In this document: one piece after another, positions 5,981-41,000 of the stretch
Layout of the letters: every line of letters starts with the position of its first letter
How positions within the stretch are numbered: the first letter of the stretch is position 1
NCBI GenBank assembly: GCA_973895155.1
Contig: OZ316895.1
Span: 19,792,803-19,856,802, forward strand
DNA: 64,000 bases
Direction of reading: 5' to 3'
Origin: Marsupella aquatica
Taxonomy: Eukaryota > Plantae > Marchantiophyta
The notes under the pieces: model-generated
Told to the model about the DNA's origin: nothing
The model's database searches: none
Seen by the model: the letters and a program-made list of their open reading frames with translations, nothing else
Position numbers and translations under genes: made by a program

Positions 5981-6192
5981 TCCGAGATACCAAGTCTTTT
6001 AGTTGACCATCTTGGAGAGGCTCTCCGAGATACCAAGTCACTCCGCTGCCATCTTAGAGAGCCTCTCCGAGATACCAAGTCTCTTTGTTGACCATCTCGG
6101 AGAGCCTCTCCGAGATACCAACTCACTTTGCAAATCATCTTCGACTTTCCCATTCCATTTCTAAGACCATCTCAAAGAGCCTCTCCGAGATA
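5981..6192. repeat. Palindrome array A (left subterminal), about 4 copies of ATCTCGGAGAG-S-CTCTCCGAGAT
   Basis: Copies near 6009, 6051, 6094 and 6169; 42-43 bp period for the first three. Confidence 0.9.
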
Positions 6193-6317
6193 CAAATACA
6201 AAAAATTTGTAAGTGATACACATCACATTCACTTTTCATATATATTATAATGTGTACACAACAACACTTCATCATTGAGCCTACCTTCTCTAAAGCTAAC
6301 CCCTGTTGGCCACTACT

Positions 6318-6586
6318 TTATTCTATTATCTGATATGTGCACAGGTCATAAATAATCTTCTTTTGCAAGTCTCCTACCTGACTGCCATCAAAATCCATAG
6401 GAGCATCTCGACTTATGCGCTCTGCATAGTTAAGGATAAATACCCCACAATTTACACTATCTTCTTGTGATGGAAGGCCTGACACTAAAGTTCTAGGCCA
6501 GTTGTATGGATCTGGTGAGGGCATGCCTCTTTGACTTGCTTCATCCTTGATATACCTTGTTAGAGTATACATGAGATACTCATTTC
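6318..6586 (-). pseudogene. Ulp1/peptidase C48 SUMO protease, C-terminal part with oxyanion Gln and catalytic Cys
   Basis: LPSQEDSVNCGVFILNYAE; joins in frame to the segment ending at 10290 (…WEARN|EYLMYTLTRY…) when the LTR element and one TSD are removed. Confidence 0.9.
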
Positions 6587-9500
6587 TGTTGAGGAATGAT
6601 GCGGGAAATGATAATGAGATTTCTCTCTATAGAATGAATGGGTGCATCTCTTTATATAGTCTCCGTCCGAGTTATCCTATATGGTAACTATGGTTAAGGT
6701 AACCATGGAGTCTAGTTAGGGTATAACACTCCCCCTTGGCTATATAGTGATAACTATGTAGACAAAAAGTCTTCTAACTAGATTATCATGCTTATAAACA
6801 TGGCATGATTTGAGTACAAATGAGGAAGGTACTGCCTCGTTAAAACCTTTAATAGCTCTAAAAAACTCTATCAAGGTAACAGAGAAAAAAAAATCTCGGC
6901 TCTAAAGGAAAAAGAGTACAGCCCTGTCGGTCCTCAAGTGAATCCGGTGGTATGTGGAGTTAACAGTAACAACTCCACTCCATCAAAATGAACAAGTCGT
7001 CGTATGCTCAACGACTCAACAACAATGCGACATGTCTCCAAATCGCTCACCATCGCGCATACATCCGCACATACATCCTCGCATCGAATACAAATTAAAA
7101 CATATATGAAAAAATGATTAGTAATTAAGTTATTATCATAAAATCACTTGTCCGTGGCTCATCTGCGCAAAGTGTAAAGTATAATAATAATTAATGTCAT
7201 CTCGTGCAACTGAGTGCGTAATGTATGGGATGTAAAGAGTCCGAAAGATATGATCTCCCCCTCAAAACAAGGTTTCGAGGAATATATTATTCTCATAAAA
7301 CTCAAATATCGAAACTCTCCCTTAGAGTTCAAGGACTCCTAATTAGATTCTTAAATAGAGGGTTCTTGTGCAAAATGCACAATTCGCAAGCGTGTGTAGT
7401 CGACACACAAAAAAATCTCTCAATCTTAGATTTCAAAACATGTAGTATCAAATAGTTTTTATATGAAAAATAATCTGCAGCACCAAAGAGTGTGCATTCA
7501 CAACACCAGCGGGTGTGTGTATAATATGACACGTCTGCCCTGCACGTCTGCAGTTCTCATATTTTGACAAAAAGTGTCAAGTCAATATAGCTTCACAAAT
7601 AACCCCGTGGAATCCAAACATTCAGTCGAACGTCCATGTGTGTCATAGCACAGAGAAGTGCTAGCTCAAAATGATTCGCTATCTTGCGGAGGTAAAGTGA
7701 TATTCATAAACGTCAAACAACTCTGTATAAAAATAGTTTAGAGCTAGTGATAGTCAAAAGATCCCACTTAATGACCAAGTACCAAAATGTACTCGTAGTG
7801 GGTAAATCAAGTGTGATTGGGGTTTGAGAAAATAAACTTTCTCCCCCTAAATATGCATTTTATGCATATATTATAGTTGAAAGCTAGAATTAAGTTGGAC
7901 CGAACAAAGTTATGGGGTTTGCCCATATTAACCCCTCATTACTCATTCTGATATGAGTTTACTTCGGGTTTCTAAATATTCGCAGTTAAACCCCTAAAGG
8001 GTTATTGATTATCCGCTTTTGGGTATGGCCGGAAATTAAGGTCATGGAACTAACCTGAAGTACTGTACCTTAGATTATTCTGGATTTTTCGTGAGAAACA
8101 TATCTGCCATCGATCACTGGACCTCAGAAAATCTATACCTTACCAAAATACCTCAAAAACTAGGTCATAGAGCATGGTTAAAGGTATGGTATTAGTTCCA
8201 TACTTAAAAACTATCATCCCACCGAACGATGGCTATAAAAGCTTCCGTTTGAGTTGTTTATGGTATAAAGACCATGAGGATAAGACCCTTAAGTAAGATA
8301 TTGCCCTAATGTAGGGTGTAAATGGGTGTAAAAGTTGTAAATGGTCAATTTACACACAAAAAGTGTATGGACCAAAGTTTATTCCCCTTGATGGTGTAAA
8401 TTGGTGTAAACCAGTGTAAATGCTATAAGCAAGTATAATCTGGTGTAACCAGTGTAAACAAGTATAAACCCAATGTAAAGCATGGGATTATACAATGGTA
8501 AGACATACACCAGTGTAAACTGGTGTCATGAGGTATAATCTAGAATGGTATCAATAGGTGTAAACTAGGGGTGTAAAATGGTGTAAAAACCATTTTGTGA
8601 TTGAAATGGGTGTAACAACCACTTTGTAAATGGAAAGTAGAGGTATTTGGTATAAAACCATTATTTCCAATGTGCAAAATCAAGTAAGGGTGGTATGACA
8701 TGTAAATATGTCAAATGCATGTAAAGCATGTGTTGCACATGTAAGGCATGTTAATGTATGCAAATTCAACAAGTGACATGTAATTTCCCTAAACCAGTTG
8801 ATGTGTTTACATGTGTAAACTGTGTAAATTGCTGTGTAAATTTGCAATGTGCACTTATCATTTTCCATTTCATTTGTTTATCCATAAGTGCAAAACATCC
8901 GTTGTCAACAAGATTTTCTTTGTTAATATGTGCATATATGGATAGTTTTTCAAAAATGAAGATTTTGCACTGAAGCACATGGGATTCTCTTGTCTTTGGA
9001 TAAGTGCACCCAAGCATTTGTATTTCAGAAACTCTTTACTATACTGTGCATTTAATGAGGGTTGCACTTATCTGGTGTTCGAGTTTTTCTCGAGGATTTT
9101 GAGATTGAATGTTGCATGTTTAAGTCACTCATGTGTGTCTCTTGAAATCTCACTTGTCGCTTTGGCTCATTCGTTGATTGCGATCAGCTTCTCAGGCTCA
9201 TTCTTGGACAAGCACAACATTCCATATTTAGGATTCAGAAAATGCTATCAGATCTAGACCCCACAACGATGACTTGTTTCTTGCGCTGGATGCCATCTCC
9301 CGTACGTTCACAACCAAAGCCAAGATGTTCTTCCTCCATGACATTTGCTTCTATCTTCTCCAATTTGATACGACTGTATCAAATGGCTCTTATTGGAATC
9401 TTCATTGAATCAGCAAACGACCAATTCAACATCCATGTTTGGCCTCTTGTAATGCCTATACTTCACTCGATCGTGTGTAATGGGCATTTCCTTTCATCCT

Positions 9501-10289
9501 TTATGGCTTGCAGATCGACCAACAAGAAACTGTCAGCGGTTGAGAAACATTGTGAAATTCAGGGAAAGAGAAGGCGCCTGTGTTCGTCCCTTATGAGGTT
9601 AGGGTTTTGAAAATTTTTCTTATGATCCCGATCGGGTCCTGATTTGCTCTCGATCCACCCGGCTTCATTCAAGGCTGTCTCTGTTTGGCTTCCGGTCTCT
9701 GCTCTTCTCTTTCTGCCTCTTGTTAAGGTTGTCAACTCATCGCCTCGAGTGATTTAGGTTGATCTGGCCTGGTTGGGTAGAAGGAAGCAGCGCGGCTGAA
9801 CTCGATCTCTCTTGCCTCAGCCATAGCTTTCCACTTGACTCAAATCATTGCCTTGAATACTGCTTTCCCACACGATCTTCAGAATCACCCTTCAAAACAA
9901 AATTTCTTTTGATCATATCACAGCCTTCATAAGCTTGCTCTCGGCCATAATGCTACATCATGTCGTTGCTTCAACGTGACTCATGTTCTCTTGGTGGTTC
10001 AAACTACTAGTCTTCTCACTCCCAATTCAATTCTCCTCCATAACTTGGAAATCCTTAAGAGAACATTCATTCATCATAGCCATAGGGAAATTCCTAAAAA
10101 AAAAATTCATGATCAAGCTCAGCTGGTCTAGAGTCGTGCTGATAACGTGTTGAGGAATGATGCGGGAAATGATAATGAGATTCCTCTCTATAGAATGAAT
10201 GGGTGCATCTCTTTATATAGTCTCCGTCCGAGTTATCCTATATGGTAACTATGGTTAAGGTAACCATGGAGTCTAGTTAGGGTATAACA
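6587..10289 (-). mobile_element. Non-autonomous LTR retroelement inserted in the Ulp1 domain
   Basis: 142-bp LTRs at 6587-6728 and 10148-10289 (TG..CA, one mismatch seen); TSD ATTTC at 6582-6586 and 10290-10294; PPT at 6729-6739; PBS-like CGTTATCAGCACG on - next to 10148; no recognisable pol. Confidence 0.92.
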
Positions 10290-11149
10290 ATTTCGAGCCT
10301 CCCAAAAGTTTTCTGATTTCCCCCAAAGCGAATCTAGGAACAACACCTCTTTTCCAGTTAAATCAATCACTGCCAACACCCAATGCTCCCTGTTTGCCTG
10401 GTGGATAGGGACCAATATCTTGTCATAATCAAATATGTTTTCTGTTTTGGTCCATCGAGCAACATTGGCAAAACAGTATACGGGCATTGAGAGCAACGTG
10501 TAGAATGTTGTGATGAAAAATGCACACTTTGGATAGCCTCTTGATCTCCCCCTAAACTGCAACAAGGCCAAATATGCATCGATGATATCTGAATGTAGCC
10601 ATTGAGCTGCTGTTCTTCCCGGGGTTCTTCCTTCAGACAAGCATCTCATTGACGCCTTGGTCAACTTGTAATCTACAAAGTTGAACAGTACTTCCTCGTC
10701 TAGGAGCTCTATGGATAGACATGTGGATACTATGTCGGAAAAGTCTTGAGAGCAAACTACTTCAGCAAATAACCCAGGTATCCGGGTATTCCCACCACGT
10801 GCTGCATAGGATTGAACACCATGGCATTAGGTATCATCTTCATGTGAGCTATAGGTCACAAAAGAAGGGTGAGCTATCTTGTCACTATCACTGCTGACAC
10901 TCTCACTTTCATTGTAGTCTACCTCTACTGCTCTATCATCTACAAATCTAGATTTTTGCCTCTTTGTGTACTTCTCAGCTACACCCTTGAGCCGTTTGAA
11001 GGGGCATGAATCAACAATCCCTTCTGCGTAAGTTGGAAGGCAAAATCTTTATGTCCGACAGAAAGGTTTTGATGTTTCCTCCCATGCTTCACGGACTTTG
11101 TTCTTGTCCGATGTGTGCCATTGTTCGGACTCGATGTTCCTATAGTGAA
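10290..11149 (-). pseudogene. Ulp1 protease exon, N-terminal part with catalytic His and Asp
   Basis: WLHSDIIDAYL...FFITTFY...KILVPIHQANREHWVLAVIDL...FLDSL; the frame extends up to 11149 through two TAA codons. Confidence 0.88.
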
Positions 11150-11289
11150 CTGCCTATTGGTTAAGTAGACAGTTTAAGGTAATACCATAATAATGTGGAA
11201 CTTCACATTTTTATTGATCCTCACCATGGCACAATGTAAATTGCAAACTATCTACAACAAATGGGTTCTTGGATTCAACGTTTACTCAC

Positions 11290-11800
11290 AATCCTGAGCA
11301 TCCCCACCCTTGCCTTCTGTAGCATCCTCCTCTGAATCAGACTCAAGGACCAGCTTCTTCCGCCCTTTAGGCTTTTTAGTCTCCTTGGCCTCCTCCTTCT
11401 TACTCTCCTTGCCCTCCACCTTGGTCTGATTGCCCTGCTGCATTGAAAGGAGTTTTGACACCACTGTCAAAGCTGCTGACTCACCAAAGTAGTCATGCGC
11501 TTCCATCCCAAATACTAGTCGCCCACAATTATTGGCAGCTTTGTAGATAGCACCAAAGTGGACATTCCAAGAAAATACGATATTGCCGGGACTGGTGATG
11601 TGCTCTATGATGCATTGCAAGGTTGCAGGCGATAAGGTACCGGCTAATTTGTCTCTCACTGCATCATCTTCCTTTGTAAAATTGGATAGAGTATTGCTCT
11701 TTGCTGGGCACAAGTCACCAGTAATTGGCTTCATAAGTACCTTTGGGAGGGTCACCTCTGTACCCTTCATGGCGAATATATCCAAATGCAGATATTGAGC
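11290..11800 (-). pseudogene. Exon encoding the C-terminal half of a beta-class N6/N4 DNA methyltransferase-like fold plus a charged linker
   Basis: LSPATLQCIIEHITSPGNIVFSWNVHFGAIYKAANNCGRLVFGMEAHDYF follows the N6_N4_Mtase pattern kP..L...li...t.pGd.VlDpF.GsG....Aa...gR..iG.E....y, but FxGxG is degenerate; acceptor GACAG ends at 11801. Confidence 0.6.
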
Positions 11801-11854: not shown

Positions 11855-12320
11855 TCCTACCTATCTCAGAGAGGCTCTCCAAGATTCCAAGTACCTATCT
11901 CAGAGAGGCTCTCCGAGATCCAAGCTACCTATCTCAGAGAGGCTCTCCAAATCCAAGCTACCTATCTCTCCGAGATGGATCCTACCTATCTTAGAGAGGC
12001 TCTCCGAGATCCAAGCTACCTATCTCAAAGAGGCTCTCCGAGATGAATCCTACCTATCTTAGAGAGGGTCTCCGAGATCCAAGCTACCTATCTCAGAGAG
12101 GCTCTCCGAGATGGATCCTACCTATCTTAGAGAGGCTCTCCGAGATGGATCCTACCTATCTCAGAGAGGCCCTCCAAGATGGATCCTACCTATCTCAGAG
12201 AGGGTCTCCGAGATGGATCCTATTTGAGAGAGGTTCTCCTACCTATCTCAGAGAGCCTCTCCGAGATCCATGGTACCTATCTCAGAGAGGCTCTCCGAGA
12301 TGGATCAGGCTCTTTGAGAT
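11855..12320. repeat. Palindrome array B (intronic), about 12 copies at 34-bp period; resumes at 19859-19965 after the copia insertion
   Basis: Unit approximately CCTACCTATCTCAGAGAGGCTCTCCGAGATGGAT. Confidence 0.92.
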
Positions 12321-12675
12321 TGATCCTGTTGGGTATTTACTCTTATGTCTAGGTTAGGTATGATGTGGTTGGTACAACAACGTGGGTTGGTACAACTATG
12401 TGGTTAGGTACAACTACGTGATTAGGTACAACTATGTGGTTAGGTACAACTACATGATTAGATACAACTATGTGGTTAGGTACAACTAAGTTGCACACTA
12501 TATCATAAGAGGCATGTGTGCTTGGAGAGGTAGAACCAAGGCTCATTGTTATGGAGCCACTTGAGAGATAGGGAGAGCTTACACTGTGGAGACTCGATGT
12601 AGCCGACGGGTTTAGAGTTCAGTAAAGCTCTCTTGTGTGTTCCCGTGGACGTAGCCTCAAGGAGGTGAACCACGT

Positions 12676-14435
12676 TGTCCGGGTGACCGTATTTTCTGGC
12701 AAGAGCATGTTGGCTCTTTTGAAGTTAACCTTGCATGCTCATAAGTTCTACACTAAAATCAAAATGATAATTCTAGTAACAAGGGTAGTGGGTATTAAGA
12801 AAGGTTCAGATCCATGACTTCAATAAAGGACAAAGATGATGCACTCCCACTCCTCTTGGTACGACACCACTGGGTATATTATTGGCTCGTTAGAAACCAT
12901 AACAGCAGTTGCAAACTGAGCTCCAAAATGATAGGTTAGATGTTGCCTCATAGATCGTTTATCTAAAAGATGGACTCTAATCAAAAACGGAATACGAAGG
13001 GGAAGATCAGGGATAACTCTCTCTCCTGGATTCATGATGGCTCTCCTATTCCTTTGCTATCCGGGCCAAAGGACGCCCCACCCCTATATTCCCAAAGAAA
13101 CCTTATTCCCTAAGGTCCCATCTATAAGTCTACCACTCATTCCTTTGCTATCCGGGCCAAAGGACGCCCCACTACTATGTTCAAGGCACAAAAGAGCTTC
13201 ACAACCTTGAATGATAAACACTGCAGAATGAGGGGAGAGTGCCCCTCACCACTTTATTTATAGTGCACACCAAGAGGGCATGGATCAAGCCCAAGCACTT
13301 GGATGAAGGCCAAGTGTCAAACATCTAATACCAAAGAGTGTGCTAGTACTGTTCATAGTTGGTGAAACTACTTTTAGTAGGTGAAACTACCATGCGTTGG
13401 TGGAACTACTATGCGTTGGTGGACCTACTGTGCGTTGGTAAAACTACTGTGCGTTAGTAAAACTACTATGCGCTGATGGATCTACTGTGCGTTGGTAGAA
13501 CTACTATGCGTTGGTGAATATTATTGTAGTTGGTGCTACTCATATGCATTGGTGGAACTACTATAGTCCGTTAATATAGCTAAAGAGTTTTAATAAAATC
13601 TAAATTTAATAATCTAACTACTAAATTACTTATATAATCTATAGCATATTAAAACAAACAATTTTTTATAACTTAAGAGAAAATCACGATATATCACCCC
13701 TACCAAACCTGTGCATCCTCCGGTATGCACCACACCTAGAATCGTTATATGTCTTCTTCATCTAAAGCCTCATAGTCGTCGGGTTCAAACTCTTCCTCTG
13801 TCACAAATCAAGTTCGTCGTTTAAACAATTTCACTCGCTTCCCTGCATAGGGATTGCGATGAATTGCTCCATCAAGTTCTCTTACCACATATGTTGCATT
13901 AGGACGAACCTCCTCCACCACAAATGGTCCTCTCCAACGACGTGCAAACTTCTTCAGAGTAGAATGTTGCTGTTCCAATCCTCCCTCATAGATCAAGACC
14001 CAATCTCCATTCTGGATGGGAATTGGTCTCAAACGATGGGTCTTGTCAAATCGTTCCTTATTCTTCTCACGAGCCTCCTTTAGCCTTAGTAACGCCTCCT
14101 CAATCTTCTCCTTGGTCTGGCTAAAGTGCTCAATCCTTCGCTCTAGCAACTTTTCTCGGGAGATTCTATCTTGCCATTCAATCATCCTCCAACTCTGAAC
14201 ATTTTTCTCAATCGGCATCAAAGGCAAATGTCCAAAGACTAATTCGGCAGGCGTAATTCCTGTTGTGGTAGTGCATGTCATTCAATCTGCCAAAAGAGCA
14301 AATGGTAGAAGATTGGGCCAAAGCGATGGTTTTCCTCGGTAAGATTTCACCAAGGCATTCACTATTGGTGGGTGCCCTCGCTCAATCTTTCCATTTCCTT
14401 CTGGGTTGTAGGCAGTAGTGAGTTTGAGCTTGATG
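12676..14435 (-). mobile_element. Truncated Ty3/gypsy fragment (3' LTR 12676-13696, PPT, integrase C-terminus) inside the copia 5' LTR
   Basis: TTAYNPEGNGKIERGH...GITPAELVFGH...RWRGPFVVEEV (integrase core end and GPY/F motif); purine tract GGTAGGGG on - immediately before TGATATAT at 13696. Confidence 0.85.
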
Positions 14436-14927
14436 TTGAACCGGTCAAAACGATTTCGACGACGAAGGGTGGTAAGGGGTTTTGAGGGTTCGAGGACATG
14501 TGTCAGCCCCTCGATTGTTCTTCCAAAATTCCCACAGGGCCTGTACAAGGGTCATAGAATATTCCAAAAAACCAGAGAGCTATTTTTTGACCGTCCGACA
14601 AAGATTGCATCCGCCGAACGGTAACTTTTTTGGTTATTTTTTGGCGAGGTCGTAGCCATTGAAGTTGGCAAGCGGCGCACCAATCACATTGCAATTCTGA
14701 CAACGGGTTGTACTTGGTATTTCGGTTATTCCCTGAGGTGGTCAAAACGGGGGAGTTTCCCAAGGTTTTACCCACCTCGACCGAAATTTGAATAACTTTT
14801 CCGTCAAATTTTGATTTTGATTTCGGTTTTCAGTATTGGACTCCTAGCTTTGTGGGCTACGCGGCGGTGTTGAGTTTTGAGTTTTTTGAGAAGTTGTGAA
14901 AAACAACATTTTTTGTGATTTTCTCAT

Positions 14928-17900
14928 ATGAATGATTCGGAGGAGTTTTTCGAAGACGTGGAACTTGAAGCACGAGGATCACCGCGGAGGTTTCAGGGGC
15001 AGAGAGAGGAGCAGGAGGAAGAGCACGTGACACCGATACCATCACCGGTGCGGCGTGTGGTGGAGGAAGCTGTACTACTACCGGAGCTCACGGTAGTGCC
15101 AAAGAAGAAGATGGGGACTTTCAAGCTTGGGGGACCCAAGTATGAAGTGACAAAGTATGATGGGCGCTCTGACTACTTGCTATGGGAGAAGCAGGTGAAG
15201 GGAGTGCTCTATGCGTCAGGGATGGGCCAATTGCTGAGCCCTCGTGAAGACGATGTTGATGAGAAACAATGGGACCGCATGCAGGAGCAGGGAGTGTGGT
15301 GTGTTACACTCTATCTCATGCCTCCCATCATCAAGCAGTTGGGTGCACATAAGGATTGCATGTCCTTGTTTACGGAATTGCAGAGCAAGTATCACCGCAA
15401 GGAGTTGTCGAACCGGCTCTACACTTCCTACAAACTGATGAGTTTCAGGATGAAGGAATCCGGTACGAAGTTGCAAGACCATGTGGATGCTTTCAACGAC
15501 ATGGTCGTTGACTTGGAAAACCTTGGGGAGACTTTGAATGATGAGACGAAGGCTCTGCAGCTTCTTAGTTCATTGCCTCCATCTTACCAGTCCCTATCAC
15601 GAGTGTTGTTGCATCGTGATAGGGATACCATTTCATAAAATGACGTGGTAAGTTCTCTGCTTAGTGATGATCTTCAGCAGAAGATGCACATCACGTCACA
15701 GCCTTCATCATCTGGTGCTGCCCTCAATGTTAACCGTGGAAGGAGTATGCAGTGACCAACTGGGGACCGTAGAACCCAGTTTAGATCTAAATCCAGATCT
15801 AAGTCCAAGGGTAAATCCCCTCAGAGGAGGCAGGTGACATGTTGGAAGTGCAACCAAGTTGGACACTTCAAGCGAGACTATAAGGGAAAGGCAGCGGAAA
15901 CTTCATCGGCAAATGTGGCTAGGGCTGATGGAGAAGCTGATTTACTCAATGATGAGTATGTTTTATGAAGTCGGGGGTATGCCCTGTGCACGTCATCTAG
16001 GAGAGTAGATGATGTATGGATTCTTGATTGTGCTTGCTCTTTTCATATTTGTTACATTCGTGAGTTTTTCAGTTCTTACTCTGTTTCAAACAGTTCAGTT
16101 CTGATGGGAAATGATCACTCCTGTCAAATTGAGGGAATTGGGTCTGTGAAGATTAAAATGTTTGATGGCGCTGTGCGCACAGTGTCCGAAGTCAGGTATG
16201 TACCTGGCATGCGTAAGAATCTGATTTCACTCGGTGTGTTGGATTCAAATGGTCATCAATGGAGCGTTATTGATGGTGAACTTCAAGTCAGGTCGGGAGA
16301 GACAGTGATTTTGAAGGGGAGTAGACAAAAGAATTTGTATGTGTTACAGGGCAATACTGTATGTGGAGAGGCCAATGTAACCAAGTCTCACGAGGAGATG
16401 ACTCAACTGTGGCATTCATGGCTAGGCCACATGAGTGAGAAGGGTTTGGCTATCTTACGGAAGAATGGACTCATTTCTGATTTGCAATCTTGTAAATTAG
16501 AGTTTTGTGAGCATTGCATTCTTGGAAAGCAGCATCGTCGTGCTTTTGGTGTTGGAACTCATCGTTCCAAAGCGGTTCTTGAGTACATACATAGTGACGT
16601 GTGGGGTCCATCCCCGACTCCCTCACACTCTGGAAAATTATACTATGTATCATTTATTGATGATTACTCAAGATTTGTGTGGATTTATTTCATGACGCAT
16701 AAGTCTGATGTCTTGTCCATTTTTAAGAAGTGGAAGGCCTAGGTGGAGAATCAGACTGGAAACACGATCAAGTGTTTGGATACAAGGGTGAAGAATCTGA
16801 GGTCAGACAACGGCGGGGAGTACACTTCAATGGAATTTGAAGAGTACTGTTCAGAACAGGGGATAACTCGCCATCTCACCATAGTTTATACTCCGTAGCA
16901 GAATGGTGTCGCTGAGAGACTCAATCGGACACTGTTGGAGCGGTCATGGAGTATGTTGAGCCAATCAGGTTTACCACAAGAATTTTGGGCAGAAGCTGTC
17001 AATACCGCAGCTTATTTGGTAAATCTTTCTCCTTCTAGTGCTATCAATTTCAAAACGTCGTTTGAGATGCGCTATAAGCGGCAAGCAGACTATCATGGCT
17101 TGGTAGTTTTTAGAAGTGATGCATATGCTCTCACACCGAAGCAGAATAGGATCAAGTTGGATCCTACCTCCAAGAAATGTGTTTTTCTTGGGTACCAGAG
17201 TGGTGTGAAAGCCTATAGGCTATGGGATCCTATTGCCTGTAAGCTCGTTGTCAGTAGGGATGTTTCCTTCAATGAATCCAGATTATTGAAGGAGGGGGAG
17301 AATACTCAGGTCTCCCGTACTGACAAAGGAAAATCTTCTATCCCGGATCTCGTTGAGGGGGAGATTGGTTATGAGGTGCATGACCGGAGAGAAGGAGTTG
17401 CTCCAATTATGGAGCTGGTTCCTGTGCCAGAGGAACCAGAGGAGTTTGTTGATGCTAGTGAGCAGCAAGTGGATGTTGTTGAGCTTCAAATTGTACCAGC
17501 ACACACAGATCAACCGGAGTCATCGGCTAGAAGAACATTTGGTCGCACTGTACACGCTCCACCAAGGTATGGACAGTGGGTTGATTCATCTCAACTGCAA
17601 GAGGATGATTTTACAGCTGATGATGAGGGTGATGCGTTAATTTTGGAAGAAGGGGAACCTTCTTCATTTCATGAAGCAAGTGCTTCAAAGGAGAAGCATA
17701 AGTGGACTGCAGCAATGCAAACGGAGATGCAGTCACTAAAGGACAACAAAACTTGGGAGCTTGTTAAGCTGCCTAAGGGTCAGCAAGTGGTGGACAGCAA
17801 GTGGATTTATAAGCTGAAGGATAATTCCATAGGAGGTGGATCGAAAGTCTACAAGGCTAGGTTGGTAGCAAAGGGATTCACACAAGAGAAAGGTGTGGAT

Positions 17901-23486: not shown

Positions 23487-23519
23487 TTTCAAACCTCACC
23501 AACTACTGAATTGCACGAG

Positions 23520-25866: not shown

Positions 25867-25974
25867 AATGGACACCCTAAACTTAGTCACTGTCACTAAT
25901 AGTTTTCATGCTCACTCACAAGGGTACATTGTCAAGAAGGATTCTCACATATTCAACGAGGGAAGAATATTTGT

Positions 25975-26345: not shown

Positions 26346-26477
26346 AAAGTCATAAGAATCAATAACAGTTTTCACATACTGTTTGTTGATTAAGTTACGC
26401 TCTTGAGAAACAAAGAGGAATTGAGCAAGCCGGAAAGGCAATAACATCCCTTACATGAACGAGGCATCTCTCGGTGG

Positions 26478-29924: not shown

Positions 29925-30570
29925 GAAGATTGATCGAGGGCGAGATGACTGTGGATGGAGCTGCTGTGATCGAGGGGCACTAATTGCTGTGATCGGGGAG
30001 CTTTGCTGTTTGGGCTCAATGCTGCTTCGATACTTTTCCGAAGGATTTGCATGCATGCTGCAGGGCTTTATATTGAGCTGCAGCTTGATCGGGGGCGGGG
30101 CTGCGACTTTATATTGAGCTGCAGCTTGATCGGGGGCGGGGCTGCAACTTTACATTGAGGAGCTGTGATCGGGGGCAGGCTGCAACTTTCAATTGAGCTG
30201 CTATGATCGGGGCTGCAGCTTTTGATTGAGCTGTTGTACGTGATCGGGGGACAAGATTGAGCAAGGCTGAGATTGATCGGGGGGACAATTGTTGATTGAG
30301 CTGCTGCTGTGACCGGGGGAACTTTTTGTTGAGCTGGAGCTGGGTCGGGGGCGGGGCTGAAAATTTCAATTGACTGAGGAGCTGTGATCGAGGGTGGGGC
30401 TGCAACTTTCGATTGCGCTGCTATGATTGGGGTGCTGCAGCTTTTGATGGAGCTACTGTGATTGGTAAACCTAGATTGGGAATGATGGAGCTATTGTGAC
30501 CGGCAAACCTATGATCGATCGAACCTGTGATTGAGCTGCTATCATCGGCAAACGTGTGGTCGAGTTGCTA
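29925..30570. repeat. Degenerate tandem repeats (GATCGGGG / ATTGAGCTG) in the 5' region of the P-like element
   Basis: Recurring TGATCGGGGGCGGGGCTGCAACTTT..ATTGAGCTG units. Confidence 0.75.
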
Positions 30571-30774
30571 TCAGCGGGCAAACCTACTTTTGGTGGAGTT
30601 TTCTATCCATTGCTCTTAGTGCTTTCGAATTGCCTATGCTGTGTGTCCTACTTTTTGTATAAATTGCACTCGTGATGTTAAGGGCAATGCTCATTTGTCT
30701 GTATGCTTTTCAGTTTACTTGTTGCCACCTTACGCTCCGCAAAGAAACTTCTCGTGCCATGCATCTCATCACTA

Positions 30775-30955
30775 GTCTGCTCTATTGCTCGCTACTCTGC
30801 TCTATTTCTTGCTCTACTCTATTGCTCGTTGCTCTGCTCTATTGCTCGCTGCTATGCTCTATTGCTTGTTGCTTTGTTGCTCTATTGCTCGTTGCTCTAT
30901 TGCTCACTGCTTTGTACCTCGTTGCTCTGTCGCTGCTCTGTACCTCGCTGCTCTT
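30775..30955. repeat. Short GCTCTATTGCTC-type minisatellite
   Basis: Many CTCTATTGCTCG/TTG repeats. Confidence 0.75.
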
Positions 30956-32263
30956 TTGACAGTCCATGCCAATGTTTGTTGTGCAATACCTTGCTTACCC
31001 ATAGCTTCATTTGTTAGCCAGCTTTCTCCTCATCAAGCCAGCTCCTTTGTCCTTGATCATGTGAGCTAGTGTCGAGAGCTCTTAAAGAATCCATGTCTGT
31101 ATCTCCCCCCTCTTTTGCAAGCAGATTTATGAGAGCTTGTCCTGCTTGTAAGGATCCATTGAATGATGGCTTAGCACTCCAGATGTTGAAGTGAGAAGGA
31201 ACTAGGGAAGGAACTTACCAAAAGTGAACACATTTAAGTGAGAGAAATGCCTGAACTGCAGTCGCTGCACATGTTGATCATACTAAAAGCTCATGTTCGG
31301 GTGGCAGTCCAACTCATTCCAAGTTGGCAATAGAGCTTGGACAGGAACTCTGAATTCCATGGATTGCTGAAAATCAATTTAGAAATAGAGGCTTTGACTT
31401 GGCGCAAGGGAGCTAATTCGATCTGCAAGTGCCGTTTCATTCGATCTGCAAGTGCTTGTGGTGGAGTTTCCTCACTGTCCTGCTAGTTTTGAATTGCTTC
31501 CTTTGATTCATTCTGAGTGATTTGATTTTCTTGCTCAATAGAATGTCCTGTCAATCATCTCCCTCTCTTTGTTGCTCTTGAGTTCCCTTTGCTTTGTCTA
31601 GGAGACTTAGATAAACTATTAGCTCTTGGTGAATGCAATATGTGGCTGTTCCTCCAAGGCAATGGAAGGCATTCGTTTATACAAGGTGGGCATTGGTTCG
31701 AGTTGTGACTGAGGTGATTGTGGCTGTGATCAAGGTGCAGCAAGAGTTTTGATCCAAGTAGGGGAATAGCAGATTCGCCCTTGGTACAACAGAATCCCTA
31801 GAGGCACTGTTGTTTCTCCTCTGCCAGCTTGTGTGACATTCATTTGGCTTTGTGTTGTGTAGGTTTTCCAACCAAAGGTTCTCTTCAACATCTATAACTT
31901 GGAACCAGTATTATGCAGTTTGGTATGCCCTGACCCTGGCTCTAGCTGAACTCGAATTGAAATTTAAAGTTGAATTTTAGTCAGCCTTTTCATATGCTCT
32001 TGACTTGTCTTGCAGGATGGATTGGCTTAGGATGTAGTGGAATCATCTGAGAAGCTTCAGCAATATACCAGGGTTCACATGTAAAGATTGTGGAAGGAGC
32101 AGGATTCAAATATCACCATTTGCTGCAGCTACAATCAAACAAGAGATTGATTAAAGGTATGATTCTATCTAGGATGCTTGTAGTTGCAAGTTACATAATA
32201 TCAATCTACTGTTCAATATATGTTGAATGGATGTTGAGGGGTTGCAGAACAAATGTTGAGTGA

Positions 32264-32962
32264 ATGGATGGGCCTGTGTGCAGAGGTAAAACCACTATCC
32301 AAGAAGCAGAGATGGCTTCTGATGTGCCCAGGATTGACATATTTTCCCATAAGGAGCACCACCGCATGGACCCCCCTTGCTGTTTCTTTTGTGATGAGAC
32401 AGACGATGTGGTTTTCTGTGATGGGCCTTGTAGTAGACATTTTCACTTTGTCGGTGGAAAAGGTATGCATGGGCCTAATTGCACTCCTATCACATTGCCT
32501 AAAAACAATGACTGGAGGGCACCTTGGGTTTGTACACTCTGTGCTGCTGGTAGAGCTAGATGCTTTGCTTGTGGCCTCATTGGCAGATTTGAACATCCCA
32601 CAGCAGAAGAATCTCTTGTGCTCCATTGTGCCCACCCTGACTGTTTTTCTCATTACCACCCTGGTTGCCTTAGGGTGCTACTTATGATTGGGGCACTGCC
32701 TGAGAGGTTTCATACAACAAAACCAAACAGCCTAATGTGCCCAAGGCATTTCTGTGAGTACTGTAAAGTCTACAAGGATGGTATTAAAGACTTTGTACAG
32801 TGTCGCAGGTGCCCTCGAAGTTGGTGTCATGATGAGAAACTTGGGGGAGTGAAACACCTCAGGAGGTGTGTGAAGGGCAGGGACCACTGGGATGTGGAAG
32901 GGTGGCGTTTCATTTATTGTCATAGGCATGCAATACCTGATGGGGAATTGGTTCCTACATAG
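32264..32962 (+). CDS. Tandem PHD/C1-like zinc-finger cluster of EDM2/NSD type
   Basis: CFFCD...VFCDGPCSRHFH...CTLC....RCFACG...CAHPDCFSHYHPGCL...CPRHFCEYC...VQCRRCPRSW...FIYCHRHAI matches the Cys/His layout I recall for EDM2-family PHDs; uninterrupted 232-aa ORF. Confidence 0.75.
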   Translation: MDGPVCRGKTTIQEAEMASDVPRIDIFSHKEHHRMDPPCCFFCDETDDVVFCDGPCSRHFHFVGGKGMHGPNCTPITLPKNNDWRAPWVCTLCAAGRARCFACGLIGRFEHPTAEESLVLHCAHPDCFSHYHPGCLRVLLMIGALPERFHTTKPNSLMCPRHFCEYCKVYKDGIKDFVQCRRCPRSWCHDEKLGGVKHLRRCVKGRDHWDVEGWRFIYCHRHAIPDGELVPT

Positions 32963-33188
32963 CCACATACCTCTTAGAGTTTCTGAAATTGGTAGAAATG
33001 CTTTGGTAGAGGGTTGGTACAAAGCAAACTTATTCACTAGACTAATTACATGTGAACTATGATCAACAAGATTTTGTTTGTGTTGGACTTCAACTTTTTT
33101 GATCAAAAGATTTTTGTAACTATTGTGGAGTAATGTCTAATATGCTTCATATCGTTTTGTTTATTGTGCTGTATGGCAGGTTCATTGT

Positions 33189-36100
33189 GTGACTGATTGT
33201 TTTCAGAACCCTTCATACTTTAACTTTAACAAATTGATTGAAATGGCTACCCAGTTTGTAAAACTATTGCACAAGAAAAGAGATGTGGTGACTGATGGGA
33301 AAGATGAAGAACCTATAGCTGTGTTGGCCTTCAAAGAGGGACAAACTTTAGCTGATTTTCGAAGTCGAATTCCTGATTTGGTTGATTTTGATTTTGATTT
33401 CTGGGATTATAGGCTTCCTGGTCGCATGAAAGTCAAGAGTGAGAAAATGACTGAGTTGTTTGAATTGGATGGGAAAGTTGCTGTCATTGAACAAATAGGA
33501 TCCTTGCCGACTGGTAGAACACAGTTTCCATCAGTATCTCCTACTGTCACCCAATCGGCTACAGTGGACTCTTCACAGGGTGAACAGCTTCATGAAGCTC
33601 CCCCTATGAGAGCTTCTTTTGAGTCTCTTCTCATGTCTCAGTCGGCTGTCAAAGTCTGGAATGATAAATATATAAGACTAGAGAAGTGGATTCACAAGAA
33701 TGGTTATAAAGCTATAATTGGAGAATTCAAACTTGGGATGAAGGACAGGATGTGAGAGGCCATCTGGAGTGTCTTGAGTGCAGAGTGATCTATGGGAGGG
33801 CAGACAATTCACAAGATAAGAAGTCAATTGCTAATTTGTTCAGCAATTTTAAGACCAAGCACCTTGCCTTTGCTAAACACAAATTAAAGATAATTACTGC
33901 AGGAGAAGGGGCATTGCTATGACTGGGGTCAAGCCCTCAGATCTTGCACAGAAGCCTGAGTTTGATTATGAGGGGGCCATAGCAACTGGCCTAGAGATAG
34001 TCCAGACTCTGAATGTTGAGTGTGGAGGTGATGATGAGCTATTTCATGTGCCCCCTGTGCCTGGTGTAGCCAATAATGCAAACAAGTGGTTCCTTTATAA
34101 GGTTCGTTGTAAAATCTGTGGGGCAATCATGGATTTGGTTTGTAAGAAAGGGACTTTGGACCACAACCTGAGGACACACTTGGTCAGTCGGGGTCATCTG
34201 GATGTAGTTGAAGCCAGAGAGAATACTACTGAACTTGCATTGAGATCTGGAAAAAGGGGCAGACCAAGGAAGCCAGATGAGAGGGATCAACATCCTTCAC
34301 AGAATTCAATTTTAAAATTCTTCAAGGAGGATGCTTCCAATGCAAGCAGTAGCTCTGGCACAGGTGGGTCTATAGACATTGATGTGGGCTTAAGTTTGCT
34401 TTGTTGGGGAATATGGGATGAATTTGTAGAGTGGAAGAATGTGAAATATGCTGTGAAAGGTATCTTGCATGATCAATGTGGTGGACATGTATGGGATTTA
34501 GATGTTGCAGCCTCTGTTCATGTCTACAATCCCGTCACCAATTCTATTGTACATATAGAAGGACTATTTAGGCATAAACATTGCTGTAGGTTGTCCTTGT
34601 ATGGTGGAGGGTTTCTGAACCTTACTTGCAGTAGATGTCATGCTATAACACTAGAAGATGACTTTCGTGGGCGGGTGCACAGGGAAGCGGAGGCTTTAGC
34701 AAAGAGAGGGGGAAGAAGCACAGAGGGTGGTTTGAATGCACGTTATTTGACACGTCCAGAGTTGACCACACAGATGCATGGTCTGAATGTCAAGAGAAGA
34801 AAGGAGAGATGGTTGTTGGCACAACAGACTCAGAAAGTGTGTGCCCTTAGTCCTTTGAAGAGAAAATTGCAGGAACTGTTAGGAGTAGCTGCAGACAGAA
34901 AAGATTTGAGACTTTTTCTAAAAAATATTGTCAATGGTCATAGGAATGGTGCATTTGGTGGAAAAGAAGGTCTTTGGGATTTTTTGAAGGATGTAAGTAG
35001 AAATTTGGAGAGAAGTGCAAGGGGGTTTCGTTACAGTCAAAAAACAAAAGCCATAGCTCAGGCTATGTTTCAGTATGGGGGCCGGCAGGTGGCCCATGTT
35101 TTTGCAAGAAATTTAGTTGGGCCAAGCCTGAAGACATTGAAAAGAGATAGAGCAAAATTTGTGCAATTTCGTGTTGGAATTAGACCAAAAACATTCAAGG
35201 AGGTGGCTCGGATTTTGTCTGTTGCAAAGGAGATGCTAGGAATTCAAGGCGATGTACCTGTCATGCTTGCAGAGAATGAAACTAGGATAAAGGAAAGCCC
35301 AAGGTATGTTTGTATATCATAGCATTTGAAGCTTATTTGTGATACATGTAGACTTTTTACTAATTCTTTATATTTGACTTACTTTTCATTGGGCTCTATG
35401 CAGGTGGGAGGCCAAGTATGACACTCTGATTGGTTTCTGTGGCCATAAGGATGAGCATACCTGTGAATTTGGACTGGAGATTCTTGTAGGTGACGGTGAG
35501 GATGGCTATAATAAGATTGTAAATACATTTGAGGATTATAACAAGGGCATGTATGCTAGAGTTGTCATTGTCAATCCATTGCATGTTGGAATGCCAAAGT
35601 TGGCCCTCTGTGCTATATCTACCTGTAACAAGTTCAAGGCAGAATGGGTTTGAGAGCATTGGGTGCAATTAAAAGAATCTTGGGATGTGCACTGCAGAGA
35701 CTTTGTAGGTCCTTTGCTTGGGCATGCTAGTGATGGTGATGCAAGACGTAGGAAATTGATGCTAGAAGACTATAGAGGAGCAAATGGCTCTTACCCTAGA
35801 TTCTGTGTAGGGTGGGAAGGATGGCCATATTTAGTTGCCATATTGCCTAATGGGGACCTATACGGTTTTGGTGATCAAGACCAACCTCACAATGGGAAAA
35901 AGTTGATTAACCCACTAGATCGAGTGTCCTCAATAATGGCACTTGGAAACCAACATGCTTCTTTGTTTCATGTTTGTAATGTGTACAATCGCTATGCAAT
36001 TCATCAACATGGATTAAATTGGGATGATGTGAACAGATCTGATCGTCAAAATTGGGTTGGTCCCCAAAGAATAGCATCCGAAAAGGTGCGTGATTGCTTA

Positions 36101-37807
36101 GCAGATCTGCATGTAAGAACTAATCTGTCGTATGAGCGAAGTTTGGGGACAGAGTTGTATCTGCAGGTCTGTGCAGATTATATTGACATTTTCTACTCCC
36201 AAAGATATAACCTGAGAACCAGAGTGAAGCTGGCAGGCAAAGTATCTTGGTTCTTTCGATTGTGGAGGTTGTGGTTGAGGTACGGTGATCATGCTGTTGG
36301 TGGAAATGTTGCTTCACATACAGAGAAAAATATGATTTCAATCCAAGCTTTTCATGATGTTAATATGTCTTGTCAATTTGTTGTGTTGCTTGTGTGTGCA
36401 TTTCGTGATAAGTTTTCTCACTTGTGTATTCCATTTCATGAATTGGGTTCTGATTGTTGTGAAATCTTTTTCAGCAAGGTAGGTGGAATGAGTGGCCATG
36501 AGAGAAATTATGATTTTGGCTCTTTGTTGGATAGTGCTGTTGGGTTGAATCGTCTTGCTGGATTAGAATGTGGACCAGAGGGCTTAAAAGTAGCTCGCTC
36601 ACATAAGAAGCAAGATCATGTGTGGGCCAAGCTTCATCCTTTACTTGAAGGTGAAGATGCACCTAATCTTTTTGATTACTCTGGAGTGCAAACTAATGAG
36701 TTGGTGGTTGCAGCATTGAAAGAAGGATTCGAAGAAGCAAAACAGTTGCTAAGAAGGTTACAAATGTCTCCCCGGAGTGATCTTCTAGCAGCAAGAAAGT
36801 GATGGTGGACTCACCCTTGGGATGTGGAAGTTGAAACATGGCCAGATTCAGCTGTAATAGAAGAGGTAGTTGTTGCTGATGATTCTGAAGAGCATGTAGA
36901 GCACAGATCTCCAATTGGACCTCGTCCAGAAGAAGAGTTTCATGAATTTGAAGATCCTGAGGAAGATCTAAATCGAATTGATGCATGATTGACAGATGAG
37001 TTAACCATTCCTGATGATGTTTTGCAGGATGGGGCTGAGTTAGACATACCAGAACCTCATTCTGTAGAGGTAGATACTTTGGGGCATGAGGTTCGTCATG
37101 TTCTATCTTCTGTTGTGGTTGAGCTTACAGAGTCTATTCAGAGCCCTATGCAGGAAAAGAAGAAGGTTTTGCCTACAATTACCTATGAGGGCAGAACAAT
37201 TTACAAATCAACTTTGGTGAGTCAACTAGTGGGCAATCCTCATTTGTCTAAAGATAGGCTAACAAGGGTGAAGCAAGTGGCATACTATAATCTTGGTAAG
37301 AGAAAAAAATGTGATCCAAATACTGTGACTTGTTTTGTTGATGTTGGGAGTGATTGTGGAGTAGCTTTTGAAAGTGCTAATGATGCAGGCCCTTCTACAA
37401 GATCAAAGAAGGGGAAAGGTAAGGGAAGAGGTAAATCTAGGATTCAAGAGCCACTAGTGCAAGCAAAGAAAGAATTTTGGCTTGGTCGGATTATGATGAT
37501 GAGACAGAAAGTTAAGGGACAATGGACTAGAGTGAGATCTGCTATTGATTTGCTTGACAGACCAACACCTCCTCATGGACACGAAGGGAGTATTTGTCAG
37601 TTCTTGTTCAATTGGTATAAGCCAACAAGCTCAAGCAAAGTTGAATTCACTTATGATACAACTGATTTACAATGGATTGATATAGAAATGGTGATGACTA
37701 ATGTTACTCTAACCATGAAACAAGGGATTGGTTTAGTGTATGTGTTAGATCGAGTTGATAAACAAGCTTTGGATACTTATTTGGAGACCATGTCTAGAGT
37801 TGAATGA
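33189..37807 (+). pseudogene. P-element-like DDE transposase with two N-terminal C2H2-type fingers; intron 35304-35403
   Basis: CLEC...KHLAFAKH and CKIC...THLVSRGH; GFRYS...GPSLKTLKR; D1 site MLAENETRIK..R|WEAKYDTLIGF (D reads N); SDGDARRR; DQPHNGKKLINPL (DxxH); DRQNW; GSDCCEIFFS (E). Scattered point stops and frameshifts. Confidence 0.75.
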
Positions 37808-38413
37808 TTTGCATGCATCAATAGTCATGGTAGCGGTTTTAGTATGTACATGGGATAGGTTAGGGGAATAGGCTAGGGGGTGGCAGATTTGGATACTTGA
37901 GCTTCTTGCTCAATCAGGGGTTCAATTCCCCTCTGCCACGTACACTCACCATTCAGATTCTAGACTCAATTCCCTTTTGGTGTACCTATCTTTCACATGA
38001 GACAAGCATAGCAGATTGCAAATATGAATAACTCATACTGTATATTGCTGAAGCTTCTACTAGAATTGGTTTTCTTAGTGGAAGCATCAACACTATATAC
38101 TATCAATTTTCCATGAGATATGGATGCCAAACCCGATGCCAAAGGAGCACGTTAGGTTTCAAATAAGCTTGGCAAAAACCCGAATAAGGTGCGCACTTGA
38201 ATGAACTTTTCTTTTCTTACTAAGGGGTATTTAATTCACAACAAAACTTTACTTAACTATTTTTAGGGGTCAAAATGTTAGGATTTCCAATTCTTATAAG
38301 TATGATAGGGAAGGGGAAAAAATATTTTTACTTAATAAGTTAGGGGTGCAAGGGTCCAAAACGTCGAGCGTGATATGAGGGTCTTTGTATATTGAGGCCC
38401 CCGAGAGTGCAAT

Positions 38414-39932
38414 CTTGTATAACTGATGCAACCCGTGCATCAAATCAAATTGGTGCCCTTGTGAACTACACGACCCACAAGGGGAAGGGCCGTGGCCCAA
38501 GCCTCTTTGAACTTCATCTCCGAGATGCCAGGATGGTTGGGAATGTTAAAAATTTCTTCCCAAAGTTAAATACAGTGATGACTCAATCGAAGATGGTTGA
38601 ATATGCTTTGGGGGACCAATTCCTGGTGACTATGACACTCAACGAATGCCGACGCGAGGCAAGGTTCCAGTTGATGCTATTGCAGTAGAAGACTCTCATG
38701 GCGATGATGTCATTCTAGTAACTCGACCTAAGAAGCGGAAGTTCAAGGGGATTTCAAGCCAAGATGCAAACTTGAAAAGTACCATTCCTGACATGGTCGA
38801 CTTGTCAACCTTGTCAGACTCTCCTACAAGCTCTGGTGGATCAGATGTGGTGATTTTGGAGAGCCTAGTACAACGTGCGACAAGGTCAACACGTGTCCCT
38901 CCACCATCAACCCCAAGGAGGTCAACTCGAGTGCCTCCTCCGCCCCCAACAAGGGCAACACATGTTCCACCTCCTCCAACCCCAACAAGGTCAATACCAA
39001 GGTCACCCCTTGTTGTCCACCAACGCGGTTGGCTGAACCTTTGCATAATAGAGGCGAATAGAGACAAGTTCAGGATAGCAATGTGATGCCAGGAATGTTG
39101 TTTTTATCTTGCATCAGTCGCCATGGAAGTGGTCCCGCTTGTAGAGGTATCTTCAAAGGCACAGAACGTCCAGCATGCGATCTATACATCAAGGAGGTGG
39201 GGTTTCGTCATGCAACGTTGGGTGTGGTAGTTATGCTTATTGGCTGGGAGCAATTACAAGGATCCAAACATTCCACAAAAGTTTTGGTTTTGCCCAAACA
39301 ATGAGTGTTGCCAAAAATCCTTCATGGCATATGTTATTGAGCGGATGCCCCCACTACCAAAGAAGGTCCCAGTTGCTTGAGGAACCTATCTAACATAAGA
39401 GGAAGTTGATTTTCTCCATGTCAATGGATTGAATGTGGTACAGACCATCATTCCTGGTGATTAAATGGTGAGTCATGGCGATGTAATTGTGGACTTGAAT
39501 AGTTACCCTGAGCAGATGGATCCACTGAAGCCTGATGTTAGGCTAAGCCGGCGCAATGGCCGGCGAAGGAGATTGGTTGTGACGGCAGATGCAAAGAAAC
39601 ATATTGAGAGTGCCAAATCAGAGTTGATGAGGTTCACTTCCATGACTCAAATTGAAAAATGGAATGCAACTGGCTTACGAGTGGTACTTTCCAACACTCA
39701 TTGTGACCGCAATTCAGCCCATTGTGTACAGATATGTGTGTTCCCAACTTGCTCTTGTCAAGATTTCATCATGAGAGATACTAGAAGATACTTCTTTCCT
39801 TGCAAACACTTGTATTGGTGCTATAAAAACATTTGTGGACGAGATCTAGAGAGTGACCAAGAGATCCACTAGCCAATCTTGACACTTAGCGAGGTTCGTA
39901 AATTGGTGTCAAATGTAGCAGGCTCAGGGTGA
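38414..39932 (+). pseudogene. Mutator-family transposase, 3' part ending in a SWIM zinc finger
   Basis: SCITDATRA...GKGRGPSL; Pro-rich linker; PTCSCQDF....FPCKHLYW (CxC..CxH SWIM). Confidence 0.85.
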
Positions 39933-40029
39933 ATGCATGTCAAAGATGTTTTGGGTTTAGTGGGTAGAACAATCTACTTTTATATCCTGTCATAATAATA
40001 AATGTTCAAGATTTCAAATGATGTTGATC

Positions 40030-41000
40030 CCATCTCGGAGAGGCTCTCCGAGATTCCAATGTAGTGTGGATCCCATCTCGGAGAGGCTCTCCCAGATTCC
40101 AAGTGATGTTGATCCCATCTCGGAGAGGCTCTCCCAGATTCCAAGTGATGTTGATCCCATCTCGGAGAAGCTCTCCAAGATTTTAACCCAGTGTTTTTGG
40201 CAATCTCGGAGAGGCTCTCCGAGATTCCAACCCAGTGTTGATCCCATCTCGGAGAGGCTCTCCCAAATTCCAAGTGATGTTGATCACATCTCAGAGAGGC
40301 TCTCCAAGATTCCAAGTGATCTTGATCCCATCTCGGAGAGGCTCTCCGTGATTCCAAGTGATGTTGATCCCATCTCGGAGAAGCTCTCCAAGATTTTAAC
40401 CTAGTGTTTTTGGCAATCTCGGAGAGGCTCTCCGAGATTCCAAGTGATGTTGATCTCATCTTGGAGAGACTCTCCCAGATTCCAAGTGATGTTGATCCCA
40501 TCTCGGAGAGGCTCTCCGAGATTCCAAGTGATCTTGATCCCATCTTGGAGAGGCTCTCCAAGATTTTAACCCAGTATTTTTGGCAATCTCGGAGAGGCTC
40601 TCCGAGATTCCAACCCAGTGTTGATCCCATCTCGGAGAGGCTCTCCTAGATTCCAAGTGATGTTGATCCCATCTCGAAGAGGCTCTCCAAGATTCCAAGT
40701 GATCTTGATCCCATCTCGAAGAGACTCTCCGAGATTCCAAGTGATGTTGATCCCATCTCGGAGAAGCTCTCCGAGATTTTAACCCAGTGTTTTTGGCAAT
40801 CTCAGGGAGGCTCTCCGAGATTCCAAGTGATGTTGATCCCATCTCGAAGAGGCTCTCCAAGATTCTAACAATTGTTGGAGACATTGGTGACCAATCTCGG
40901 AGAAGCCTCTGAGATTGATACAAAATAGGACGTCAATCTTGGAGATGCCTCCGAGATTGATTAAAAAAAAGGGGTCAATCTCGGAGAGGTCTCCGAGATT
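40030..41000. repeat. Palindrome array F (right subterminal), about 23 copies at 42-44 bp period
   Basis: Unit TCCAAGTGATGTTGATCCCATCTCGGAGAGGCTCTCCGAGAT with a recurring variant spacer TTTAACCCAGTGTTTTTGGCA. Confidence 0.95.

Follow-up and report, generated by a model that had tools for sequence, protein, structure and literature searches.

Selected palindrome arrays in a Mutator-like element of Marsupella aquatica and a ParB-fold protein as their candidate binder

A decayed 35-kb Mutator-like element (MULE) was delimited at positions 5923-41060 of a 64-kb stretch of Marsupella aquatica DNA, called the window here, and a 23-bp palindrome was found amplified in arrays within it. The palindrome arrays are a real, selected feature of this element. 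The plus strand carries a broken transposase gene, while the minus strand carries a gene for a predicted protein with a ParB-type fold, a methyltransferase-like domain and, likely, a Ulp1 protease domain. From the sequence comparisons described below, we are fairly confident that the palindromes would be sites for some element-encoded protein. On balance, the ParB-fold protein in particular seems to be their binder, and the arrays may well be selected sites through which this protein marks the element as self and helps it stay active despite host methylation, in the way that VANC serves VANDAL elements. It is favored because most copies are internal, because the terminal inverted repeats (TIRs) carry a separate motif, because ParB-type proteins read palindromes, and because a VANDAL accessory protein binds intronic arrays. 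A true sliding clamp with an anti-silencing effect is a good deal more doubtful. The copy in the window is dead: stop codons and nested insertions interrupt its genes, and decay at CG is eroding its sites.

The palindrome arrays and their conserved core

Copies of the palindrome were counted by mismatch threshold and compared with shuffled sequence. The exact 23-mer occurs eight times, against none in 100 shuffles. A limit of five mismatches gives 75 copies (shuffle mean 0), and a limit of six gives 77 (shuffle mean 0.16). All palindrome copies lie between 6009 and 40863, and they are grouped in seven arrays (A, B/B2, C, D, E, F and G), accompanied by one single copy and three shortened terminal copies (Table 1). 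The motif is present in four of the five introns inferred for the two genes, at both subtermini and between the genes. None of the 75 copies falls in an inferred exon, inside one of the three large nested elements or beyond the borders of the element, where the best match has 7-10 mismatches; the 28.9 kb of flank and the 20.5 kb of nested elements are free of it. Array B, of 34-bp period, is interrupted by a copia retrotransposon, and its two parts at 11863-12301 and 19859-19964 have common flanks. Array E, of 54-bp period, is interrupted by an insert of about 330 bp.

The core and its surroundings behave differently. Comparing the seven array consensuses in 21 pairs gave a mean identity of 0.92 for the core and 0.37 for the flanks (null 0.31), and the cores are 82-100% alike between arrays. 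Spacer alignment, a weak test on such short strings, gave no significant pair among 28 array pairs (best p 0.076). CCAAGT directly follows the core in both terminal arrays, which is within chance (180 comparisons, 0.82 expected at that level). A single drifting satellite is ruled out, as the flanks are near chance while the cores are conserved. Copy differences are mainly transitions, found at 71 of 300 CG sites, 14 of 150 CCG sites and 7 of 450 other C, and most copy variation is of this methylation type. Symmetric positions changed jointly 6 times, against 11.7 expected; therefore hairpin repair does not explain the conservation of the core, and self-repair of this kind is ruled out. These comparisons support selection on the core as a putative protein-binding site.

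A first-pass annotation of the window had described six arrays with periods of 34, 37-38, about 42, 42-44, 50 and 54 bp, placed in the subtermini, the introns and the intergenic region, with a single copy near 20937 and no full copy in exons, in the nested copia and P-like elements or outside 5923-41060. The periods (34, 37, 42-44, 50 and 53-54 bp) are borne out, as are the locations at the five-mismatch threshold; the arrays number seven plus the single copy, the 34-bp array being split by copia. Its statement that spacers are unrelated between arrays largely stands, apart from a flank identity slightly above the null and the hexamer common to the terminal arrays. Its proposal of a core selected for protein binding, though not of a dimeric binder in particular, is likewise supported by the contrast of core and flanks and by the half-site kept in relatives, as far as such comparisons reach.

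Half-sites in related loci

A metagenome scan yielded 23 related loci of 1.0-2.8 kb from 142 candidates. In an unbiased count of repeated 12-mers, TCGG/CCGAG lies in the top word of 8 of these 23 loci. A search for spaced half-sites, allowing at most one mismatch, found 55 copies of CTCGG-N2-CCGAG, spread over 10 of the 20 distant loci, where 0.55 would be expected in all 23 loci together. These copies often stand in arrays of long period whose outer arms are particular to the family. The N9 form occurs in intron 1 of both close loci, with two copies in L001 and one in L002 (0.15 expected), and its inner bases there differ from those of the window. None of these 58 N2 and N9 copies overlaps coding sequence, and 49% of the related loci is coding; one further N9 match, in L020 and outside the 58 counted, is in coding sequence. 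The half-site recurs in non-coding arrays beside relatives of the ParB-fold gene at 24-47% protein identity. As a separate observation, L006 (42-790) and L012 (49-660) hold arrays of about 74-bp period with a single CCGAGAG half-site. The exact palindrome was not found in viral contigs.

A protein tree of 34 rows, from which L023 was left out for want of a usable open reading frame (ORF), puts the window together with L001 and L002 (96/91) and sets the N2 loci apart in another clade (95/97). Half-site spacing goes with this tree, at 9 bp in the clade of the window and 2 bp in a distant one. The conserved family-wide unit is a half-site of 5-7 bp with clade-specific spacing. What is conserved over deep time is the half-site with its inverted pairing in non-coding DNA and not a hairpin, because several related sites fold weakly. 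Such a pattern would be expected if a symmetric protein recognizes the site as duplex DNA.

The ParB-fold, methyltransferase-like and Ulp1 gene

Five exons were inferred for the minus-strand gene from splice-site words and from colinearity with the Riccia protein P0008. They encode, in order, a ParB/Srx-fold domain, a helical domain, a degenerate N6/N4-methyltransferase-like domain and, likely by splicing, Ulp1. A Pfam scan of 22 of the 85 window ORFs gave no match of any kind for the ParB-fold, helical and methyltransferase-like exons, and none of ParA type. Exon 1 has five relatives at 51-70% identity among 10 candidates, and a profile search found 15 longer proteins, those named coming from Riccia, Adiantum and Selaginella, all annotated as hypothetical. 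For P0008 itself, a search of clusters formed at 50% identity gave 269 relatives at E≤0.001, of which 150 were listed. The named relatives make a non-seed land plant the likely host.

The homolog P0002, which is 70% identical to exon 1, was modeled at a predicted local distance difference test score (pLDDT) of 72. Its top Foldseek match is ParB (6sdk; probability 1.00, E 0.014), and the VIA top eight are KorB, SerK, PadC, Srx, a ParB-N domain, SbnI, Atu1540 and Srx again (Z 6.7-4.6, the next at 3.3). The ParB/Srx fold is also present in non-clamp enzymes such as Srx and SerK. GNHR is invariant in 20 of 20 rows and fits GxxR, which is described as the P motif of ParB (PMC12704722). Exon 1 likely encodes a ParB/Srx-fold domain, judged from this model. 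Exon 2, read through one stop, was modeled as all-helical (pLDDT 89.5); no family was found for it by Pfam, PDB-sequence or Atlas features, and no homolog among 1336 longer-protein candidates. PDB sequence searches with the ParB exon and the helical domain gave no match, and Atlas searches gave only leads below 0.9.

Exons 3 and 4 align to family homologs. Among the 41 of 168 homologs that were scanned, PF01555 was matched at E≤0.01 in 13, with P0052 above the cut-off and P0109 covering profile positions 2-212. Against PDB sequences, the methyltransferase-like region gave only an E of 0.025 to the DpnA methyltransferase. N6/N4 amino-methyltransferases carry the catalytic motif (D/N/S)PP(Y/F/W). 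An exact PPY/F/W is found in 0 of 17 homolog motif matches, which read DIPT, DMPS, DLPF, DPPT and the like, while the window reads KLGT; the domain is probably not catalytic.

Ulp1 (PF02902) was matched at E 4.8e-16 and 2.7e-6. A GTGAGT donor and an AG acceptor stand at positions of matching phase 1, putting Ulp1 in frame with the methyltransferase-like exon, while homolog gene models stop after the methyltransferase-like domain. Fusion of Ulp1 to the ParB-fold gene by splicing is the more likely arrangement because of the in-frame splice and because the Ulp1 exon has no start codon; a separate Ulp1 gene, suggested by homologs ending before it, is disfavored on the same grounds. No relative of the ParB-fold exon was found among 101 viral-contig candidates or seven prokaryote-genome candidates, nor did a phage tblastn give a match.

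The transposase gene

The plus-strand gene was inferred to be a broken Mutator-type transposase from the target site duplication (TSD), the TIRs, a weak SWIM match (PF04434, E 0.019, below the cut-off) and motifs read by eye, which we take to be a DDE core, a Cys/His zinc-finger-like region and xxFH motifs. No MULE Pfam profile matched the broken pieces, and a PDB sequence search with a transposase piece found nothing. Outside the window, exon 2 of the ParB-fold family is fused in the gene model P0044 to a homolog of the N-terminus of this transposase, a sign that the two genes travel together.

Proposed function and its alternatives

A mechanism can be proposed in which the helical domain of a protein with two-fold symmetry would recognize the inverted half-sites. 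Any intronic site could be amplified in tandem, which would raise site density, with selection holding the core while the spacers drift. The ParB-fold domain would bind nucleotide and might let the protein load and spread, and the methyltransferase-like domain and Ulp1 would act on chromatin. A bolder and rather speculative version is that Mutator transposons of non-seed plants rebuilt a ParB/parS-type system, in which a ParB-fold dimer would load in a nucleotide-dependent manner at intronic palindromes, slide over the 35-kb element and carry a methyltransferase-like reader and a SUMO protease against silencing, its specificity diverging through spacing (9 versus 2 bp).

Several observations weigh against assigning the arrays to the ParB-fold protein. 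Both TCGG/CCGA cores are intact in just 15 of 75 copies and neither in 20. Copies with both cores number 0 of 12 in array B and 0 of 9 in array E, showing that one-armed units were amplified, which suggests either that dense single half-sites suffice or that amplification outlasted selection. Arm losses are independent within copies (Fisher p 0.64), and the idea that each copy keeps at least one half-site is unsupported by the same test. The fold scores of P0002 are middling (Z<8, E>0.001), and no helix-turn-helix was identified in the helical domain by sequence or Atlas features. P0044 is the only outside link of the transposase to the ParB-fold gene. Among the 20 distant loci, seven are without the motif and L006, L008 and L012 have half-sites only; loci within a clade are kin, and L009 and L010 are one family, leaving effectively two clades and few independent events. 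Being contigs of 1.0-2.8 kb, the related loci do not allow the ParB-fold gene to be told apart from a transposase linked to it and are too short to show transposon status. The first-pass annotation had spoken of a perfect 23-bp palindrome; this is true of the consensus and the eight exact copies, but the scarcity of copies with both cores shows that the perfect 23-mer was overstated as the conserved unit, which family-wide is the half-site. Its binding-site reading, sound as to selection on the core, had missed the ParB-fold, methyltransferase-like gene as a likely source of the binder.

The foremost alternative, which we consider unlikely, is that the arrays are Mutator transposase binding sites aiding end recognition and self-activation, with the ParB-fold gene merely linked. 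In Muta1, the transposase is described as binding more strongly with subterminal repeats, and a palindromic motif at the ends as being of importance (PMC5499845), while the AtMu1 transposase alone is described as activating and hypomethylating cognate copies (bioRxiv 10.64898/2026.08.24.746577). The transposase of the window has its zinc-finger-like region, and the subterminal position of the largest array (G, 20 copies), as for transposase sites, is a further point against the ParB-fold protein. However, 51 of the 75 copies are intronic or intergenic and stand 5-18 kb away from the closer of the two ends, the TIRs carry their own, different motif, the half-site tracks introns of the ParB-fold gene in relatives, and the AtMu1 transposase is itself described as peaking at TIRs (bioRxiv 10.64898/2026.08.24.746577).

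It is improbable that the palindrome is a selfish or mechanically favored seed, a hairpin or cruciform copied around and triggering tandem duplication with no binding function. The exact 23-mer does fold as DNA at -9.3 kcal/mol, the element has other, motif-free arrays of 82-bp units, and one-armed units were amplified; yet paired, compensatory changes are not in excess, the half-site is kept in related arrays with a weak hairpin or none (L009 -3.1, L002 -3.7 and L006 -2.3 kcal/mol), and sequence, not symmetry alone, is retained across the range of protein identity given above. Least probable of all is a host transcription or chromatin protein recruited by sites that the element gathered, for although long-distance conservation of the half-site suits a slowly evolving host protein, the spacing switches with the clade of the element's own protein and the motif is absent from flank and nested elements alike. 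Recognition by the ParB-fold protein of the element is the explanation retained here.

Architecture of the element

The element is bounded by a 9-bp TSD, ATTTAGTCA, which lies within the 8-11 bp described for MULEs (PMC6446971), and by 54-bp TIRs of MULE type that are complementary at 74% (Table 1). The TIRs hold 14-bp palindromes and TCAGT repeats at 5939-5965 and 41018-41044, unrelated to the 23-mer, which are candidate transposase sites.

Table 1. Features of the element in the window.
Feature	Position	Strand	Remarks
Left TSD, 9 bp	5914..5922	+	Identical to 41061-41069
Left TIR, 54 bp	5923..5976	+	Own 14-bp palindrome and TCAGT repeats, no 23-mer
Array A, left subterminal	5981..6191		42-43-bp period, 4 full copies
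Ulp1/C48 protease exon	6318..11149	-	PF02902; interrupted by nested LTR (long terminal repeat) element; likely in-frame splice to methyltransferase-like exon
Nested LTR element	6587..10289		142-bp LTRs, 5-bp TSD; palindrome-free
Inferred intron 4	11150..11289	-	Sole inferred intron without the motif; best match 11 mismatches
Exon 4, C-terminal half of N6/N4-methyltransferase-like domain	11290..11800	-	Aligns to P0008 955-1072; homologs match PF01555
Array B, intron 3	11863..12301		34-bp period, 12 copies; one arm CpG-decayed in all
Nested copia retrotransposon within array B	12327..19845	+	TSD GATCC; palindrome-free
Array B2, remainder of array B	19859..19964		3 copies; 10/10 flank bases common with B
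Exon 3, charged linker and N-terminal half of methyltransferase-like domain	20002..20885	-	KLGT at catalytic-motif position; 5' boundary uncertain
Lone decayed palindrome copy	20937..20959		In inferred intron 2
Exon 2, predicted all-helical domain	20999..22314	-	In place of ParB DNA-binding domain; several stop codons
Array C, intron 1	22368..22741		50-bp period, 8 copies
Exon 1, likely ParB/Srx-fold domain	22814..23483	-	GNHR (GxxR) motif; one frameshift near 23090; from model of homolog P0002
Array D, intergenic	24632..24947		40-43-bp period
Array E, intergenic	24986..25831		53-54-bp period, 9 copies; interrupted by ~330-bp insert
Inferred Mutator-type transposase gene, decayed	26532..39932	+	One inferred intron and a nested element
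Array F, transposase intron (28445-29064)	28474..28981		37-bp period, 12 copies
Nested DNA element	29174..38405		8-bp TSD, 13-bp imperfect TIR; palindrome-free
Array G, right subterminal	40032..40863		42-44-bp period, 20 copies
Three terminal copies	40894..41000		Centre 1 base shorter, A-rich spacer
Right TIR	41007..41060	-
Right TSD	41061..41069	+	Identical to 5914-5922

Three large insertions, an LTR element, a copia retrotransposon and a DNA element, are nested within, each with its own TSD. The LTR element is young and 3.7 kb long, with LTRs 99.3% identical and no recognized coding domain. In copia, 13358-14281 holds a tandem array of 19-bp units and, on the opposite strand, an ORF resembling by eye a gypsy-type integrase end. 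The nested DNA element spans 9.2 kb, with an NSD-like PHD-finger ORF at 32264-32959 (E 4.6e-8), long unclassified ORFs, a CpG observed/expected ratio of 0.23 and tandem repeats of its own; a second copy of its end stands at 50581-50688. Two 82-bp tandem arrays, intergenic, mutually unrelated and palindrome-free, lie at 23552-23874 and 25974-26347, one upstream of each gene. A dispersed repeat of about 330 bp has three copies, at 25212-25478 inside array E, 3064-3382 and 41559-41892. An Rfam scan of the window matched no family.

Implications and comparison with known systems

No description of a ParB-methyltransferase transposon gene or of parS-like plant arrays was found in the literature within coverage, most subscription papers and the supplements of PMC4738411 and PMC12704722 lying outside it; within that searchable literature, neither the candidate binder nor its palindromic site of variable spacing appears to have been described. 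The documented cases of sequence-specific anti-silencing in plants, in the accounts available, are VANC, TnpA and the AtMu1 transposase, all in flowering plants. The present element points to an independent anti-silencing system in non-seed plants, built from bacterial-type parts, and offers a candidate role for a family of 269 clusters whose named members are annotated as hypothetical. With the candidate protein and the candidate site both defined, and with spacing that switches naturally between clades, the system is directly testable. If the ParB fold clamps here, it would provide a mechanism by which a site-bound protein acts over a whole multi-kb element, as well as a possible tool for targeted epigenome editing; if the full proposal is true, anti-silencing in the style of VANC would have been invented independently, here with a eukaryotic ParB clamp.

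As in ParB/parS, Noc and KorB, an N-terminal ParB fold with GxxR would be followed by a helical domain (PMC12704722), and palindromic candidate sites are clustered near the gene, with no match to the bacterial parS sequence claimed. Unlike these systems, the gene is eukaryotic, contains introns and is borne by a transposon; it is fused to methyltransferase-like and likely Ulp1 domains, and no ParA was seen in the 22 ORFs scanned. Phage fusions of ParB with N6/N4-methyltransferases are described that likewise join a ParB fold to a PF01555-type domain (PMC12704722; PMC13229309), and such fusions are a plausible ultimate source of the gene. They differ in that the catalytic motif here is degenerate (D-x-P-x in homologs, KLGT in the window), and the searches of viral contigs, prokaryote genomes and phages detected no relative. 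Spm TnpA and Muta1 share clustered motifs, which in their case are described as bound by an element-encoded protein (bioRxiv 10.64898/2026.08.24.746577; PMC5499845); their sites are terminal, whereas most copies here are internal.

In layout, the element resembles VANDAL elements with VANC or KIU, in which a MULE carries one or more accessory genes (PMC5735166; PMC13317346). VANC motifs are described as tandem repeats accumulated in introns, intergenic and terminal regions (PMC5735166), as is the single motif here, and in KIU the accessory protein is described as joined to a Ulp1 domain, likely so here too. The accessory protein of the present element differs in its modeled ParB/Srx fold and its methyltransferase-like domain, its site is a 23-bp palindrome of inverted half-sites instead of a 9-bp motif such as YAGTATTAY, and its 54-bp TIRs contrast with the absent or short degenerate TIRs described for VANDALs (PMC6446971). 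The named relatives of its accessory gene are from non-seed plants. The Pfam scan of 22 ORFs gave no match to the DUF domains of VANC, with no direct VANC sequence comparison made. In conclusion, the layout would work like that of VANDAL/VANC, by analogy and with no membership implied.

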